Part shown: one piece after another, positions 37,821 to 47,901 of the stretch | Numbering within the stretch: the first letter of the stretch is position 1 | How the letters are laid out: the number at the start of each line of letters is the position of its first letter | Source: an uncultured bacterium | GTDB taxonomy: Bacteria; Babelota; Babeliae; Babelales; Babelaceae | Direction: 5' to 3' | Assembly (NCBI GenBank): GCA_963713855.1 | Contig: OY970209.1 | Coordinates: 672,001 to 736,000 of the forward strand | DNA length: 64,000 bases | Program-made: the position numbers and the translations under genes | The notes under the pieces: generated by a model | Database searches by the model: none | Told to the model about the DNA's origin: nothing | The model's input: only the letters and a program-made list of their open reading frames with translations

Positions 37821-39719
37821 ATGTTTAATGTGCGTAAAGTTATTGTTTTTAGCTCGCTTTTTGCCTGTTTTTTTCTAATAAACTGTCAAGATTCCGGTGA
37901 CGTGGGCGGTCAAATGGATGGCACGTTGGATAGCATTAAATCCTTTCCCGAGACGTTTGCGATGGGCTTTGGTTATTGCCCATCAGATTATACGTATAGC
38001 ATGTCTGTGTGGAATGATTTTAGCCAGTCAATCTATGCACGTATCCAATCAGTTGTTTCTGTTCAAGGAGCGAAGTTTAACTCATCAAACGCCGCTTCTA
38101 CGATGATTCAGCCATATTCTTCGGCAAGCGCAAGTACATTTAACGCGGTCCACGTCTGTCATGGCATTGTGCGCATAGATGCTTTAAATCATCAGATTTT
38201 TGCCCGGGGTGTTGATATAGATAAGACCGATAAGAATGTCTATTACTATCACAGCTTTTCTATTGAAGGAAACCCTGAAGCTGAATTCATGGGCCCCGGA
38301 TTTTATGGTGGTCCATATACTCAAACCTCTGAATTTGATGGTGTCTTTTTTAATAATACAACCTACGACGTTTCTTTATCATTCAATTATTCGGCCAACA
38401 ATAAACCGGCAAATTATACACTTATATTAGAAGCAGGCTCGTTTAATCTTTTAAGCTCAGATAGCACGCAACCCCATTCGATCCGAGACGTTACCAAAAC
38501 CGGCTCATTCAGCTTTAACTTGCCTAATAAATCAAAGACGAGTCTTCCTATTAATTCACAAGGGCTTGGCCAAATCTATTGGGACGCCTCAAGCTCAACG
38601 AGTCTTGCGATTCCCCTAACGACCACGTATGAAATGTTTGGTACTTCAAAAAGCGGAGTACAAGTAGGAATACAGGGCTTTAATATGGGAAACCATAACC
38701 AAACGGGAGTACCAATCGTAAAATCGCAAACACCCCCCAAAGGCTTGTCTCCAATACGCGACATAAACCCTATTTTGTGCGAGGTTTGGTGCCAGTCTCC
38801 TGAGCAGTTTTCGTCAAATCAAAAAGCTGATGCACAAACGTTTGCGTACAAAAGTCAGGAACATATTTGGGCAGCATACGCAACGAAGGATTATACCATC
38901 TTTCAAGAATTAACCCCCGCAAAAGTTACCTCTTTTTCACTTATAAGACCTACTGCAAGTGAGTCAAGTTCACGCCTTTATGTTTTTGCTCTTGATAGCG
39001 ATAATCCAGATAAATCTCGCTCTTATTTGCGTCGCATGCTTTCAAACCCCGGCAGTCTTTCAAAGGCTCTTGCTGTTGATATACCTAATCCCGACACTGC
39101 AACAACAACTCAAATAGAAGAAGCTGTGGCTCAGGCTCTCGGCTCAGTAGCTAATGCAACCTTTAACGATAGCGTTACCGGAGTGAAGGGTACGCTTCTT
39201 CTTGCCGATACCTTTTTGGCTTACGGTGGCCGTCAAGACCGCAATCGCTTTTATGAAGTGCTGCCTCCACTTGTAAGTCTTAATAGCCTTTTTGCAAGCA
39301 CAGTCACTTCACAGCTTGATTTGAGCCTCTTCCAGACAGCCGGTGCTACAAGAGATGCAGCTTTTACAGCTGCTACAAACGAGTTCATGCAAAACATCCG
39401 CGCATGGCTTACTACCTTTGCTACCAATTATAAGCCTAAGCAATTTGTAAATAGTACTATCAGTAACGCGCAAAGCTACCAGTCGCAGCTTGAAGCCCTC
39501 GTACCCGAGCTTACAAGCTACCTCAAGACTAAGGGGATGCCGACGCTTTTTACCAATCCCAAAGCAGCCCCTGGTGACAGGCAATTCAATTCCCAAGGCA
39601 TCCAGTCCCTCTATCTTGTACTATTGGGGCCCGTTAGCCTTAAAAATCCTCCCCTATTGCGCCAAGCTGGAACAAACACCTATCTATCTGGGGCTAAGCC
39701 AAAAAATTGGCCTTCTTAA
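37821..39719 (+). CDS. Large hypothetical secreted protein
   Basis: Signal peptide; 632 aa, S/T/N-rich beta-type N-terminal part and helical C-terminus. Confidence 0.75.
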   Translation: MFNVRKVIVFSSLFACFFLINCQDSGDVGGQMDGTLDSIKSFPETFAMGFGYCPSDYTYSMSVWNDFSQSIYARIQSVVSVQGAKFNSSNAASTMIQPYSSASASTFNAVHVCHGIVRIDALNHQIFARGVDIDKTDKNVYYYHSFSIEGNPEAEFMGPGFYGGPYTQTSEFDGVFFNNTTYDVSLSFNYSANNKPANYTLILEAGSFNLLSSDSTQPHSIRDVTKTGSFSFNLPNKSKTSLPINSQGLGQIYWDASSSTSLAIPLTTTYEMFGTSKSGVQVGIQGFNMGNHNQTGVPIVKSQTPPKGLSPIRDINPILCEVWCQSPEQFSSNQKADAQTFAYKSQEHIWAAYATKDYTIFQELTPAKVTSFSLIRPTASESSSRLYVFALDSDNPDKSRSYLRRMLSNPGSLSKALAVDIPNPDTATTTQIEEAVAQALGSVANATFNDSVTGVKGTLLLADTFLAYGGRQDRNRFYEVLPPLVSLNSLFASTVTSQLDLSLFQTAGATRDAAFTAATNEFMQNIRAWLTTFATNYKPKQFVNSTISNAQSYQSQLEALVPELTSYLKTKGMPTLFTNPKAAPGDRQFNSQGIQSLYLVLLGPVSLKNPPLLRQAGTNTYLSGAKPKNWPS

Positions 39720-39874: not shown

Positions 39875-40252
39875 ATGAAGTTAACGCTAATAAAAGCTTT
39901 TGTGTTGTTTTTTGCAGCAGCAAGCTCCGTTGCTTTTGCATTAGTACCAGAACTGCAGCCAATTAATATTAACAGGAATAAGGTAGGATTACCTGACAAT
40001 GCTCACTGTTCTGTGTATCATACTAAGCAAGGCCCAGTGATTACCTGTCAGACTATTTTTAAGAATGCGGCCATGAAGCCTACCTGCGCTACATGTACGC
40101 CTGGCTGGTTAAGCTTTGAAAACTATATAGGTACTTTAATGGGTCCTAGTATGGAAGGTCCAGGAAAAACACGCGCAGTGATCTTCTGTGATGGTGAATG
40201 CGTACCAGTTTCTTCTAAAACTGAATCGCCTATATTGCCAGAAATAATTTAA
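39875..40252 (+). CDS. Small secreted Cys-rich protein
   Basis: AAGGAG RBS, signal peptide, six Cys. Confidence 0.7.
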   Translation: MKLTLIKAFVLFFAAASSVAFALVPELQPININRNKVGLPDNAHCSVYHTKQGPVITCQTIFKNAAMKPTCATCTPGWLSFENYIGTLMGPSMEGPGKTRAVIFCDGECVPVSSKTESPILPEII

Positions 40253-40334: not shown

Positions 40335-40979
40335 TCATCTTGCACTTATTTCTTCGCCGAAAGCTGTTAATAGGTCGCCAAGTTTTTCGATGGCGCAGGC
40401 GGAGGGTTTACGAGTACCGGTTAGAATTTCTTTCCAAACAGTTAAGGCATCATTCAATGAACCCATCGTGTAAGGAGGAGATGTCATATTCAAGTATTCG
40501 TCTTTTAAAGCAACTTTAATGTAATTTGGATCTTTAAATGATACATCTGGAGCTTTGTACCACATTTTCAGGGTCTGGAGTACAAGGTCAAAAATCTCAT
40601 TAAGCTCATTAACAGTTATTTGCGGAGCAGATTGGCGGCGAGAACCAACGTTTTTAATAACATGTGGATTATCAAGTTGATCAGATACCTGACCGAAAGC
40701 TGTGAGAATTGCACCAAGTTTTCTAATGGTTTCTCCGCTTATTTCATATACAGCTTCTTTCTTATTACTCAATATTTCTTGCCAGACTTCTAAATCATGA
40801 TCTAAAGATCCAAGTCCGAAGACCGGGGTTTTTGAGGAGTTATAATTGATATGCTCATTCGAATGTGTTACCAGATAAAAATCATCGTTCCAAAAAGCAA
40901 TTGACTTAACATTTTGCTGAAGAAGGTATCTTATCGTAATTTCAAACACTTCAGAAAGTTCGTTAAAGCTTAGCTTCAC
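40335..40979 (-). CDS. Putative immunity protein made of two tandem homologous domains
   Basis: NELSEVFE..GSLDHDLEVWQEIL..KLGAILTAFGQ repeats as NELNEIFD..GSLNDALTVWKEIL..KLGDLLTAFGE; GTGA overlap with the upstream gene. Confidence 0.65.
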   Translation of the reverse strand: MKLSFNELSEVFEITIRYLLQQNVKSIAFWNDDFYLVTHSNEHINYNSSKTPVFGLGSLDHDLEVWQEILSNKKEAVYEISGETIRKLGAILTAFGQVSDQLDNPHVIKNVGSRRQSAPQITVNELNEIFDLVLQTLKMWYKAPDVSFKDPNYIKVALKDEYLNMTSPPYTMGSLNDALTVWKEILTGTRKPSACAIEKLGDLLTAFGEEISAR

Positions 40980-42067
40980 TCAGCGCCTCTTTCGTGTAAT
41001 ATATCTTTCAATTTCTGTGCTTCTCTTTTATATTTTTCTATTTGCTCGTTTAGTTCATTGATTCTTGTATTAATTCTTTCTTGTCTTTCTTGAGGGTTTC
41101 GTGCATTCTTTAAAAATTCCTTATTATCATGAGCATCGGGCTCTTTTTTGTAATCTTCAAGTTTTTGCTCGTGCTTTCTAACTTGTTTTTCCTGGCCACG
41201 GATTCGTTTTTTAATATTTTCATCGCTTGCGTCTTCCAAATTGTTTTTCGGCGGTTTACCTGTAGCGCTTTGCCCCATCTTATTTTTAGGATCTTTGGGA
41301 TCCTCAGGAATTCCCCCGCTTCCGCAACCGCTTTCATAGGTTGTTCTAAAATCACCGCCGTCAAAGTGCAGATTTTCAGCTTCTTCTATGTAGCTTGGTC
41401 GTGCTGATTCCCCCAAATTGCTCACCCACAAGAGTCCTCCTATACCGCCAATAGCAGCTCCGACGCCGATGGTCAGGGGGCTAAAAAACGAACTCGCAGC
41501 TGCGCCCGCTTCGGCTCCTGCCACAGCACCTTCACCAAACGCCCAGCTAAAAGTTATCGATAATTCAGGCATATGATTATGTACCAAGACGGAGTTTTGC
41601 CCAACAAAGTAACAGCGTGTAGGACTTTCGATTTTTATTTTAAGAAGCACATCGCCAAAACACGTTTCTTCCCATCCTTTGCATTCAATTAACTTTGGCT
41701 TATTGTCTTTGTTGCTTATTAGTAAGTTGCCTTTTTCCAGGTCTACGGCCTTAACCCACTCATTTTTATTGGCGACAAAAAAGCGTGTTGCGCCACCACA
41801 GGTCAGAACTTCCTCACCAATGTATACACGATACAAAGTACGTAGACCGTCAGATGTTTCAGGCTCGATTGCATAAGCTGTAGAAACTTTATTGTCCGCA
41901 AATGTCATAAGCATGTCATATTTAAGAATCTGATTAAATCTCTTATTACCTTGCTCTGTTTGAACAACCGTCCAAAAAGGAAAGCCCTCATCATCATTTT
42001 CTTCTACGTCGGCTGTAAGTTGTATTGCAAAAAACAGTAAAAGGGTGAGAAAATTTCTGCGTAACAT
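40976..42067 (-). CDS. Secreted Hint-domain polymorphic toxin-like protein
   Basis: Signal peptide; Hint motifs GFPFWTVVQTEQG, WVKAVDLEKG, YFVGQNSVLVHN; Gly/Ala-rich hydrophobic helix; charged C-terminal domain. Confidence 0.8.
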   Translation of the reverse strand: MLRRNFLTLLLFFAIQLTADVEENDDEGFPFWTVVQTEQGNKRFNQILKYDMLMTFADNKVSTAYAIEPETSDGLRTLYRVYIGEEVLTCGGATRFFVANKNEWVKAVDLEKGNLLISNKDNKPKLIECKGWEETCFGDVLLKIKIESPTRCYFVGQNSVLVHNHMPELSITFSWAFGEGAVAGAEAGAAASSFFSPLTIGVGAAIGGIGGLLWVSNLGESARPSYIEEAENLHFDGGDFRTTYESGCGSGGIPEDPKDPKNKMGQSATGKPPKNNLEDASDENIKKRIRGQEKQVRKHEQKLEDYKKEPDAHDNKEFLKNARNPQERQERINTRINELNEQIEKYKREAQKLKDILHERGAE

Positions 42068-44642: not shown

Positions 44643-45734
44643 TTAATGGATAGCTTTCTGCTCGTCAACAAACAGAGCCTCAGTTTGTCTGAACGTGTCC
44701 ATGGCCAGTGCTTTATCGGTCTCTTTCATTATCTTTTCAATTTGCTCAGGTCTATTAATCCATGCACCCAAGGCTTCTATGTTGTCATCGATGTACTTGA
44801 ATAAGCTCTCGATAGCTTTTTTAACATTAAGATCAAGCTTTTTTTTGCCGAGTATGTCCAAAGCGATTTTGCGTGTAACCTCTTTATCCATATAACGAAT
44901 AAGGTAGTGCCGAACAATTCGAGCTCTAGCCTCAATAGTTAATAGCCCTTTACGATCTGCTGTAAGGTTAGCTATACGATCCGCTATCATTACCTGACCG
45001 AAACCGTTTAAGATCTTCTGTCTTTTTTCATCCGTGAAAGCAGGTGCTTTAGTGTGTAGGTACTTTTTCCACTTGCTCCAGTCAACGTTCTGCCTTTTTT
45101 CAACCTCAAGTTTGAAGGCGACTTGTCCACTGGATTTACCCTCAATGCGATAAGCTTCTTCAACTTCGTTGCTAGCAGACATTTCAGTTAGTGGCACGAA
45201 GCCCTGCTTTTTATGCCAGTTAAAAGCTTGCATATTTGAACTGCTGATTCGAGCCAGGATGGTCTTTACGTTGCTTTGTAGCAGGTCTTCCTTACATGCG
45301 TTAAAAAGCGTGGTTCCAAAACCCTTACCTTGGTGCTTCTCATCAATACCAATGTACGATAACTCTCCGTAGGAATTATCGGACACTGAGTCTGTATCAG
45401 AAAGTAATGCTGATACAACGTCGATCGTCGCATACATCGCTATTCCAATTATGTCGTTATTATCAATAAGGACTTTTGCTCTAGCAGGTTTTGCACCATC
45501 AATCAATGTATGGCCATATGGCGTAAAGGTAAAAAGAAGTGAGTCAAAAAAACCAGAGCAGAGTGCATTAGTTTCTTCAAAAGCTTTCCAGTGTTGTACG
45601 CAAATATCATGTGCAGCATTGTAGTCAGTTTTGTAATTGTATTCTCTTATGGTAGCTGCATGCAGTGTGAAGCAAGCAAGGGCCACCACGATAAAACTAA
45701 GCGTATTGGAGATTTTCTTTAGAGAATTACTCAT
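44643..45734 (-). CDS. Secreted GNAT acetyltransferase with C-terminal helical domain
   Basis: Signal peptide; IGIDEKHQGKGFG (motif A); NMQAFNWHKKQGF. Confidence 0.8.
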   Translation of the reverse strand: MSNSLKKISNTLSFIVVALACFTLHAATIREYNYKTDYNAAHDICVQHWKAFEETNALCSGFFDSLLFTFTPYGHTLIDGAKPARAKVLIDNNDIIGIAMYATIDVVSALLSDTDSVSDNSYGELSYIGIDEKHQGKGFGTTLFNACKEDLLQSNVKTILARISSSNMQAFNWHKKQGFVPLTEMSASNEVEEAYRIEGKSSGQVAFKLEVEKRQNVDWSKWKKYLHTKAPAFTDEKRQKILNGFGQVMIADRIANLTADRKGLLTIEARARIVRHYLIRYMDKEVTRKIALDILGKKKLDLNVKKAIESLFKYIDDNIEALGAWINRPEQIEKIMKETDKALAMDTFRQTEALFVDEQKAIH

Positions 45735-45767
45735 GTGTATCACGATAATTGTCTTCCTATTTTTGTG

Positions 45768-46796
45768 TTAGTGAATTTTGCTGACCTCATCTAGAAGTTT
45801 TTGCAGATACGAAGGACTGTTGATAAGGGCTATTAGAGCTGGCACGTTGTCATCTACGAAGTCGAATAGCCTTTCCAAAGCCCCTTTTACTTCAGGGGTA
45901 ACCTTTGTAAGTCCGAGTGTGTAAGCGATGGTCTTGAGCGTTTTCTCTCTTTCGCTAAAATCTCGAAGATATCGTCGAGCTATGTATACACGTTGCTCAT
46001 AGGTAAATTCAGTTAGGTAAGCTGTGCTCTCAGCTAGCATATGTGCTATTTTACTCTGAGCTAAATCGGATAAAGTATTTTGCTCGGCTGATTGTTCAAG
46101 CTCTTCAGCATCTTCAAGCAAGTGTCCCCTCCACTGATCCCATTTGATGGCGCTTCTCGGCTTCAGTTCTAATTTAAAGGGATCCAGTTTTGAGGCTTCT
46201 GCCTCAAGTCGATAAGACTCTTCAAAAGGGCTAATTGCTGTGACGTGGTCTAGGGGGATAAAGCCTTGCTTTTCTAGCCAGGCTATGTGCGGTCTATCTG
46301 TGCGAACCGCACGTGCTAAAACTGTTTTAACGCCTGGAGATTTTAATAATTCGGCTTTACATGAATTAAAAAGAGCGGTCTTATAATCGCCCTTAACACT
46401 TTTATCAACTGCTATATAGCAAAGCTCTGCGTACGAGTCATCATGAGGAATATTTTTTTTCGTAAGCAGTTTGGCCGCCGGAAGGGGATACGCGTAAAGA
46501 ACAATGCCAACTATTTTTGGCTCATTGAGAATGACCTTGCTCTTTAAGCCGAGTTGACTAGCGTGCTTAGTTTCAAGGTCTGTGAAAGTCAGGAGAAGTG
46601 TATCGAAAATTCCAGAGCATATTGAATCAGTTTCTGCAAAAGATTTCCAATGCTGAACACAAATATTATGCGCTGCCTGATAATCGGTTTTGTAATTGTA
46701 CTTTCTTATTTTAGCAGCTTGAATAGGGATGGTTGCAAAACCGGAAAGTAGAAAAAGTGTCGCATTGAAGGTGCTTTTTAGCTCGAAATACGCCAT
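45768..46796 (-). CDS. Secreted GNAT-like paralog, motif A degenerate
   Basis: IRKYNYKTDY, AELCYIAVDK and WLEKQGF align with 44643; no GxG. Confidence 0.75.
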   Translation of the reverse strand: MAYFELKSTFNATLFLLSGFATIPIQAAKIRKYNYKTDYQAAHNICVQHWKSFAETDSICSGIFDTLLLTFTDLETKHASQLGLKSKVILNEPKIVGIVLYAYPLPAAKLLTKKNIPHDDSYAELCYIAVDKSVKGDYKTALFNSCKAELLKSPGVKTVLARAVRTDRPHIAWLEKQGFIPLDHVTAISPFEESYRLEAEASKLDPFKLELKPRSAIKWDQWRGHLLEDAEELEQSAEQNTLSDLAQSKIAHMLAESTAYLTEFTYEQRVYIARRYLRDFSEREKTLKTIAYTLGLTKVTPEVKGALERLFDFVDDNVPALIALINSPSYLQKLLDEVSKIH

Positions 46797-46815
46797 AAAC
46801 AACGCTCCTTGGGGT

Positions 46816-47868
46816 TTAATGAAGAATGTTTCCAATCTCATCTAGAAGTTTTTGCAGATACTGGGGACTATTAAATAGATCTTCTAGAGCGGGCAAGTTA
46901 GCATCAACGTAATCAAATAGCCTTTCCATAGACTGCTCCATTTCACGGGTAATTGATGTAAGTCCGAACGTGTAAGCAACAATCTTGGATGTTTTCTGCC
47001 TATCGCCAACTCTAAGATATAGTCGAGCGATCGACTGACGTTGATCGTAAGTGAATTCGGTTATATGTGCTGTACCTTCGGCCAATATATGTGCCGATTT
47101 ACTCTGGGCTAAATCGGATAAGATATTTCGTTGCACGGATATTTGGAATTCTTCTGCATCTTCAAGAAAGTGTCTCTTCCAATCGCCCCACTCAACATTG
47201 CTTCTGGGCTCCAGTTCTAATTTAAAAGAATCCTGCTTTGCAGCCTCAGAATCAAGCCGATAAGCTTCTTCAAAAGGGGTGCTTGCAGTTACGGGGTTAA
47301 GGGGGACAAATCCTTGCAGTTCTAACCATGCTTTGTACGCTCTATTTGAGCGAACTACACGTGCTAAAACCGTTTTGATTTCTTGAGATTTTAAAAACTC
47401 CGATTTGCACGAATTAAACAGCGGATTCTTATAGCTACTGTGAGCATTTTTGTCGATGAGTATAACAGTAAGTTCCGCATAAGAATTATCGTTCACAAAG
47501 CTCCTTTTCATAAGCCAGTCATGCGCTGGGATAGGATAAGCATAAAACGCGATGCCCATTATTTTTTTATCTTTGAGAATTACCTTACTCTTTAAGCCGC
47601 TCCCACTTGCGCGCACTGTCGTTGAGGGAGTGTCAGAGAAAGCTAATAAAAAAGTGTCAAACTGCCCGGTGCACGTAGAATCCGCTTCTGCCAAAAATTC
47701 CCATTGTTGACGGCAAAGATAACGAGCTGCTTGATAATCAGTTCTATAGTTATATTTTCTTATTTTGGCGATTTTTTTCGTTTCTTGGGCTTTTATAGAG
47801 ACGGTCGTAAGACCTAAAAGCAGAAAGGCTGAAATATTAATAAACCTTTTTAGCTTGAAATACGCCAT
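46816..47868 (-). CDS. Secreted GNAT-like paralog, motif A degenerate
   Basis: Closely similar to 45768..46796. Confidence 0.75.
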   Translation of the reverse strand: MAYFKLKRFINISAFLLLGLTTVSIKAQETKKIAKIRKYNYRTDYQAARYLCRQQWEFLAEADSTCTGQFDTFLLAFSDTPSTTVRASGSGLKSKVILKDKKIMGIAFYAYPIPAHDWLMKRSFVNDNSYAELTVILIDKNAHSSYKNPLFNSCKSEFLKSQEIKTVLARVVRSNRAYKAWLELQGFVPLNPVTASTPFEEAYRLDSEAAKQDSFKLELEPRSNVEWGDWKRHFLEDAEEFQISVQRNILSDLAQSKSAHILAEGTAHITEFTYDQRQSIARLYLRVGDRQKTSKIVAYTFGLTSITREMEQSMERLFDYVDANLPALEDLFNSPQYLQKLLDEIGNILH

Positions 47869-47901
47869 AAACAAGTCTCCTTATACTACATGATCCGATG
47901 G

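Follow-up and report, generated by a model that had tools for sequence, protein, structure and literature searches.

Neisseria MafB proteins are polymorphic toxins with a signal peptide and a DUF1020 N-terminal domain; some contain a Hint domain, and they are accompanied by cassette arrays. With regard to toxic activity, ColE3 and Ntox21 cut 16S rRNA, and Ntox33 and Ntox37 are predicted RNases. More broadly, toxins that combine a signal peptide with HINT form an established class in the parts of the literature drawn on here (PMC3482391, PMC4725963, PMC11062931). The sections of PMC3482391 considered describe polymorphic toxins with a signal peptide and HINT, list HINT with export through Sec and the type II system (T2SS), and place Ntox21, Ntox35 and ColE3 among the RNase toxins.

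Here we describe a gene pair which, we hold with high confidence, encodes a polymorphic toxin and its cognate immunity protein. A preliminary description of the window (the whole 64,000-nucleotide stretch of DNA that was analysed) had proposed a polymorphic toxin with neither an RHS nor a filament stalk. That reading is upheld by the Hint domain, the swapped tips and the tip-tracking partner found in our analysis, the toxicity itself being a prediction.

Gene Pair and Genomic Context

The features of the locus, in positions of the window, are as follows.

40976-42067, minus strand: toxin-like gene, ORF of 363 aa
42011..42067, minus strand: likely Sec signal peptide, residues 1-19
41576..41986, minus strand: Hint (BIL/PT-HINT-like) domain, residues 28-164
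41423..41575, minus strand: Gly/Ala-rich, moderately hydrophobic segment, residues 165-215
41240..41422, minus strand: variable Pro/Gly/charged linker as read from the sequence, residues 216-276
40976..41239, minus strand: C-terminal toxin-like tip, a predicted helical hairpin, residues 277-363 and stop
40976..40979, minus strand: GTGA stop/start overlap of 4 nt, read as translational coupling
40335-40979, minus strand: predicted cognate immunity gene (partner), ORF of 214 aa with GTG start
about 40979-40665 and 40640-40338, minus strand: tandem repeats of the partner, ~100 aa each

Both ORFs and their GTGA overlap were thus found as first proposed, the Hint domain falls exactly where it had been placed (residues 28-164 correspond to 41986-41576), and the charged C-terminal tip, 87 aa in length, contains the motif ascribed to it. 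A Shine-Dalgarno-like motif lies 6-7 nt 5' of each ORF of the pair. Scans of the locus for promoters, terminators and repeats stayed at chance level, except for a repeat reflecting the duplication within the partner. The 289-aa gene upstream was considered as a part of the system and rejected: homologues occur in 21 other genomes of the 61 searched, and Hint, tip and partner were found in none of the 10 regions fetched. Two plus-strand genes are convergent with the partner gene, one encoding a Cys-rich protein of 125 aa (39875-40252) and the other a secreted-looking protein of 632 aa (37821-39719), both lacking a Pfam match. On the minus strand, 44643-47874 holds three tandem paralogous secreted-looking proteins of ~355 aa each, with a GNAT acetyltransferase domain in the first and a weak score or none in the other two.

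The source genome, a single contig of 1.52 Mb (91% complete), encodes ankyrin proteins, many secreted proteins, ATP/ADP translocases, two secretins, two GspF/PilC-type genes and BamA. The producer is a diderm, as BamA and the two secretins indicate, and its genome matches the account of TM6/Dependentiae in the portion of PMC4776705 consulted (small genomes, two gspD copies, type II secretion, translocases); the bacterium is likely a parasite of single-celled eukaryotes. In another genome of the phylum (G009), genes that look GspF- and GspG-like on inspection (L100:413-2079) stand at a distance of 1.6 kb from a locus of the family, possibly by chance.

Signal peptides were judged by eye and with a hydropathy rule, by which 89 of the 99 family members have a hydrophobic stretch 5' of the Hint. 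The N-terminus of the 363-aa protein reads RRNFL, which is Tat-like, and close relatives have KN at this point. As TatC was not found in the source genome, export by Sec is favored and export by Tat was rejected.

A Scaffold Family with Exchanged Tips

Residues 1-215 of the 363-aa protein matched in 55 of 261 genomes of the phylum, taken to be Dependentiae/Babelota, and a family profile matched at 297 places in 109 of the 261 (83 of the 189 good-quality genomes), with six or seven copies in the source genome (G000). This phylum-wide breadth had escaped the preliminary description. Word-indexed protein searches returned only four to five close relatives, and searches of plasmids, phages and viral contigs gave no match to the N-terminal domain. 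Copies are scattered, and conserved synteny was not seen around them. The expectation that related genomes would hold the same N-terminus with swapped tips was borne out: single-linkage clustering of 96 family tails yielded at least 22 tip clusters, a constant N-terminal part being joined to variable C-terminal domains as in polymorphic toxins generally.

Pfam names 32 of 92 tails (Ntox37 in 15, Ntox21 in 9, colicin E3-like Cytotoxic in 6 and Ntox35 in 2), and by these domain matches all 32 are RNase-type toxins, a generalization that covers a third of the tails because the 60 others carry no Pfam name. Database relatives also carry Ntox33, Ntox24 (below the cut-off) and barnase-like tips. A same-strand ORF lies within -45 to +60 nt of 84 of the 92 family toxins, a count taken without a chance control; the 84 downstream genes include matches to CdiI_N (6), CdiI_ImmP (2) and DUF6980 (19).

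Further copies in the source genome illustrate the range of states. A second family member at G000:C1 1265223-1267640 (minus strand) has an Ntox21-like tip, from a cluster with Pfam-named members, and is followed 3' by three small genes that resemble the immunity genes of other tips, one of them standing after a tip fragment; the region is an orphan cassette array. Three more copies, at G000:C1 1478100-1479422 (plus), 1470278-1471450 (minus) and 635625-637250 (plus), comprise one intact gene, whose tip is Ntox33-like, and two that are broken, carry different tips and have partner genes downstream. Two plus-strand genes on the same contig (905411-906043 and 1311346-1312146) encode a signal, a Hint with Gly at position 1 and a hydrophobic tail, and no toxin tip. 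Neither is coupled to a small gene, and one ends Asn-Asn, not His-Asn; they are possibly repurposed or decayed scaffolds.

Fold and Catalytic Residues of the Hint Domain

Taken alone, the 363-aa protein gave no Hint match in Pfam (E<=0.1) or NCBIfam (E<=1), and none by sequence in the PDB. PT-HINT was matched by 44 of the 46 relatives scanned (E<=1e-3), with 30 of the 46 above the curated cut-off, and P0003, which is 50% identical to the 363-aa protein, scores over the curated cut-off of PT-HINT (PF07591). Among the Atlas matches listed, nine of ten were PT-HINT clusters and one a Vint cluster; all are under 0.9 and are therefore leads only. The family Hint profile matched BIL structures in the PDB at E 1e-24 to 6e-22. 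An AlphaFold2 model of residues 20-215 shows a confident all-beta Hint fold up to about residue 165, which matched the BIL 2LWY (E 3.9e-8, target TM 0.83) and many inteins. The Hint assignment, first made from the bare sequence, is therefore substantiated by the PT-HINT matches of relatives and by the likeness of the model to 2LWY. The best match of the family profile was BIL2 of the ciliate Tetrahymena (6Y75/6TMM, E 1e-24), the bacterial 2LWY being found at 6e-22; a link between the Hints of protist parasites and ciliate BILs is possible.

The domain opens Gly-Phe-Pro and closes Val-His-Asn, with His at +1, confirming both the replacement of the Cys nucleophile by Gly and the terminal VHN-His noted in the preliminary description. 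Its diagnostic positions are Gly28 (position 1), Gly91 (B7), Thr94 (B10), Lys (F4), Arg (F13) and His163-Asn164. Of the residues expected in a type A BIL or class 1 intein, Cys/Ser1 and Thr B7/His B10 are absent from the 363-aa protein, and the C-terminal His-Asn is present. Splicing by the class 1, 2 or 3 route was rejected, the nucleophiles being absent (+1 is His and F4 is Lys).

Residues were counted across the family using 30 loci from the search with residues 1-215, 64 further regions and the source genome, giving 104 distinct proteins; five partial Hints were dropped, leaving 99 full Hints. These represent the best-scoring hits of a profile that was itself made from family members, and they come from genomes that are kin. 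Position 1, at a median of 26 residues from the ORF start, is Gly in 97 and Cys or Ser in none (2 unaligned). Block-B His is found in 8 and Gln there in 88; F4 is Asp in 12 and Cys in 1; and the +1 residue is never Cys or Ser, and is Thr in 3. At a mean identity of ~25%, the terminal Asn is present in 99 of 99, the penultimate His in 98 and the block-F His (F13) in 92. Arg at F13 occurs once among the 99, in the 363-aa protein itself. In contrast, Cys/Ser1 and TxxH are kept in all eight complete stalked PT-HINTs found 5' of the same tip in other phyla (seven Actinomycetota, one Acidobacteriota).

Judged by these residues, the family Hint has lost its N-terminal chemistry and kept the set for Asn cyclisation. 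Set against the residue roles given in the part of PMC4031507 used here, the pattern excludes splicing and N-cleavage. The earlier claim that only Asn cyclisation is left, a prediction from residues, is thereby strengthened through conservation across the family. The same source reports, in that part, that F4 Asp, a residue most family members lack, restrains Asn cyclisation in one intein and that not every intein requires His F13, so that C-cleavage in the 363-aa protein is plausible, not assured. We consider C-terminal cleavage likely for the family as a whole and, with somewhat less assurance, probable for this copy. As only a signal peptide lies upstream, the simplest reading would be decay of the N-terminal chemistry with selection acting on C-terminal release.

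A hydrophobic window follows His-Asn in 89 of the 99 family members, and the Gly/Ala segment has a conserved FGxG..G..FGP..G..GG pattern. What had been described as a Gly/Ala hydrophobic helix is indeed a Gly/Ala hydrophobic segment, but no helix was predicted for it: AlphaFold2 modeled the segment without one (pLDDT <50), and its hydrophobicity is only moderate (best 19-residue Kyte-Doolittle mean 1.65). The segment may act as an entry or translocation module. The linker behind it varies in length among relatives, and no receptor-binding domain is evident in the 363-aa protein.

The Tip and Its Partner

The tip was found on 111 of the 152 proteins collected, 96 of the 111 lacking the N-terminal family scaffold. 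Elsewhere it is borne by RHS, PT-VENN, DUF637, CdiA-like and stalked PT-HINT proteins, so that the proposed resemblance to RHS C-termini proved sound, and one C-terminal domain occurs on unrelated scaffolds, a further mark of polymorphic toxins. Its 47 named loci come from Bacteroidota, Actinomycetota, Vibrio, Gilliamella, Planctomycetota, Myxococcota and others. Within the phylum it was detected in 14 of 261 genomes, one being judged spurious. A match in G106 (E 1e-5) was judged a chance match to a coiled coil, and G129:C83 was set aside as carrying a different tip. The same tip also sits on longer proteins of the phylum (about 590-620 aa; L040, L042, L032, L037 and L039, from G199, G129, G131, G151 and G134), some with a Hint and some apparently on other helical scaffolds.

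Across 60 tip sequences, H299, P310, D314, L319 and R335 are invariant. In the predicted structure of the tip (pLDDT 92.7), two long helices pack as a hairpin and the loop is conserved, which is an unusual shape for an enzyme at 87 residues. It matched no family in Pfam, NCBIfam, PHROG or the PDB, and had no match in searches of plasmids, phages and viral contigs; fold searches of the PDB, representative PDB and viral libraries returned generic hairpins only (Z up to 9.2), with no known nuclease fold among them, and do not show a new fold. The tip is best described as a predicted toxin domain without a named family. It is basic as a family (median pI 9.4), the copy on the 363-aa protein being less so (pI 8.2).

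The partner consists of a ~100-aa domain (about 95-100 aa) that has been duplicated in tandem; it is acidic, lacks a signal peptide and matched no named family in the databases searched; its family pI of 4.5 opposes that of the basic tip. A profile built solely from 12 phylum partners places the partner family directly 3' of the tip in 41 of the 47 named loci. As L088 duplicates a seed and L083/L084 are one record entered twice, the independent counts are 40 of 46 (39 of 45). Among the six misses, an ORF of the partner family still lies a short way downstream in four, one case is borderline and one (L090) has another gene. In the phylum, partners occur in 17 of 261 genomes, namely all 13 with a credible tip and four with no detected tip; in one of the latter (G008), the partner sits directly behind the immunity gene of another toxin. 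In G009, a tip-bearing toxin is followed by several partner paralogs and by a second copy that is broken and ends in another tip. Orphan cassettes and immunity arrays are absent at 40335..42067 and present at G000:C1 1265223-1267640 and in G009, G008, G076 and G199. In G173, the gene that follows a family toxin with a colicin E3-like tip (gene at L156:1378-2583, 402 aa) contains ankyrin repeats and, to judge from the coordinates, the partner domain as well; its product is likely a poly-immunity protein.

Modeled as a complex, tip and partner scored 0.85, with 0.00 for the best of three controls; this mark is reached by 116 of 157 solved pairs but by just 2 of the 215 that were mismatched. At least 95% of the contacts recur across the three runs, the pLDDT of the partner is >=82, and the modeled interface, formed by the first partner repeat around its conserved Gly57, covers K302, N315 and R335. 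The model supports binding of the tip by the partner. The proposed co-occurrence of the partner with the tip on other scaffolds is thus confirmed in the independent loci, with binding predicted in addition: a downstream immunity gene tracks the tip, as polymorphic toxins would have it.

Mode of Action and Alternative Readings

Our preferred reading, which we regard as probable, is a stalkless polymorphic toxin, exported by Sec and released by its Hint, that acts in rival bacteria and is neutralized by the partner. After Sec, the 363-aa protein may leave the cell through the type II system or in outer-membrane vesicles; the Hint would cut only after Asn164, freeing a payload of 199 residues that would enter the target cell led by the Gly/Ala segment. 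There, the helical-hairpin tip would poison rivals from inside, possibly through RNA of the translation machinery, the rivals being bacteria met within the protist host; the downstream partner is predicted to mask the tip by binding to it. As separate parts of this reading, we find a bacterial target fairly probable and an RNA or translation target possible, at somewhat short of even chances, the latter because of the invariant His/Asp/Arg/Lys, the basic pI of the family and the RNase-type payloads of its siblings.

The same anatomy could serve a payload meant for the protist host, where it would act on the ribosomes of mitochondria or plastids or in the cytosol, with the partner guarding the producer's own bacterial-type target. 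A stalkless toxin suits a confined space, the genome encodes ATP/ADP translocases and many secreted proteins, and one isolate of the inferred phylum sheds vesicles and replicates with the host mitochondrion wrapped around it, according to the part of PMC6561590 at hand. However, the mitochondrion stays intact in that account, orphan and arrayed immunity genes together with rapid tip swapping fit bacterial arms races, and free-living bacteria carry the same tip-partner pair on scaffolds of the RHS and CdiA-like kinds. The existence of orphan immunity genes favors bacterial rivals over the host, and we consider a host target unlikely. Similarly unlikely is a Hint that has ceased to cleave, in this copy or throughout the family, and now works as a chaperone, a receptor-binding domain or a folded signal for secretion, with the toxin traveling whole or being cut by a protease of the target. 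The loss of every N-terminal catalytic residue, the Arg at F13 that the 363-aa protein shares with its 73%-identical relative P0006, and the two tipless signal-Hint paralogs of the genome would suit such a role, but the retention of Asn and both His at so low a mean identity is hard to explain without chemistry.

Two readings depart further from secreted, Hint-released poisoning of rivals by an active tip. Given its hairpin shape and the invariant Asp close to the turn, the tip might be a non-enzymatic coiled-coil mimic that jams a machine, such as the secondary channel of RNA polymerase in the manner of GreA/DksA-type hairpins, and hhalign against eight GreA/GreB sequences gave a probability of 50%. 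That match is confined to 21 columns in the second helix, so that the acidic turn falls outside it, DksA reached 0.2%, and no Gre or DksA appears among the Pfam or fold matches listed; with profile matches weak or missing, mimicry was rejected as very unlikely. A search for the GreA/GreB N-terminal domain itself found it in none of 31 phylum genomes (the source genome included) and in 9 of 14 controls. An intracellular toxin-antitoxin (addiction) module rather than a secreted weapon would agree with a small coupled gene pair in scattered copies lacking conserved synteny; it is extremely improbable, given the signal-peptide-like N-terminus of 89 of the 99 family members, the toxin-first gene order and tips common to secreted scaffolds.

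The preferred reading, of a Sec-exported toxin aimed at rivals, suggests that bacteria living as obligate intracellular parasites of protists wage war on one another. Extended tentatively, at less than even odds, it would make the family a phylum-wide stalkless toxin platform in which the Hint is a one-way release switch, its N-terminal chemistry lost as nothing lies upstream and its Asn cyclisation retained, perhaps with vacuolar acid as the trigger. The Gly-zipper-led payload would then stop translation in co-infecting bacteria or in host organelles, and the tip would represent a new class of minimal hairpin toxin, found over many phyla with a new immunity family. The Hints (about 140 aa, without the catalytic Cys) would be a natural family, predicted to be cleavage-only, in which Asn cyclisation is uncoupled from splicing and which could serve as a self-cleaving tag. 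An unnamed predicted toxin domain of 87 residues and a predicted immunity domain of 95 residues, found from Bacteroidota to Actinomycetota and Vibrio, are small enough for assay, and a toxin of only about 340 residues offers a simple model for the entry of stalkless toxins.

Comparison with Known Systems

As far as we found, the stalkless scaffold and the toxin domain are undescribed within a known class, that of signal-peptide HINT toxins. Our searches of the open literature returned no published description of this stalkless Hint family, and none of the papers listed combined the name of the phylum with polymorphic toxins; six tip motifs were absent from the full-text literature searched, as was the word "toxin" from the Dependentiae genome papers PMC4776705 and PMC6561590. 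Pfam detected no DUF1020 domain in the 363-aa protein.

Compared with the polymorphic toxins in the part of PMC3482391 considered, the family shares the signal peptide, the Hint ahead of a variable toxin domain, the coupled immunity gene and the orphan cassettes. It differs from these and from PF07591 toxins, as far as that part describes them, in lacking an RHS, FHA or ALF stalk, in placing the Hint at the mature N-terminus with Gly1 and mostly no block-B His, in its conserved Gly/Ala segment after the cut, and in its unnamed tip and immunity protein. In fold, terminal His-Asn and the lack of a +1 nucleophile, the Hint resembles type A BILs (2LWY) and the ciliate BUBL BIL2 (6Y75/6TMM). Type A BILs, however, form an N-terminal thioester and can splice, according to the portion of PMC4031507 used, of which the family should be incapable because it is without Cys/Ser1 and mostly without His B10.

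The PT1-PT9 domains, as outlined in the part of 10.1101/2021.10.19.465003 available, are likewise short tips without Pfam families, carried on many scaffolds with cognate immunity genes. They were compared with the tip by description and through a PDB search, which gave no match to solved complexes, and the tip may be identical to an unsolved PT or a listed candidate of that study. SRLase1, in the section of 10.64898/2026.09.18.752725 considered, is a BECR-like RNase and so unlike the helical tip. The solved PT complexes are presumably in the PDB.

By analogy, the nearest working counterpart would be the ABP/S8-PTS toxins of Gram-positive bacteria, which the part of PMC13460014 consulted presents as secreted, diffusible polymorphic toxins with proteolytic activation and cytoplasmic immunity, as proposed for the family. 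While ABPs rely on a separate, co-secreted serine protease, the family would have its processing built in, and its producer is a diderm.
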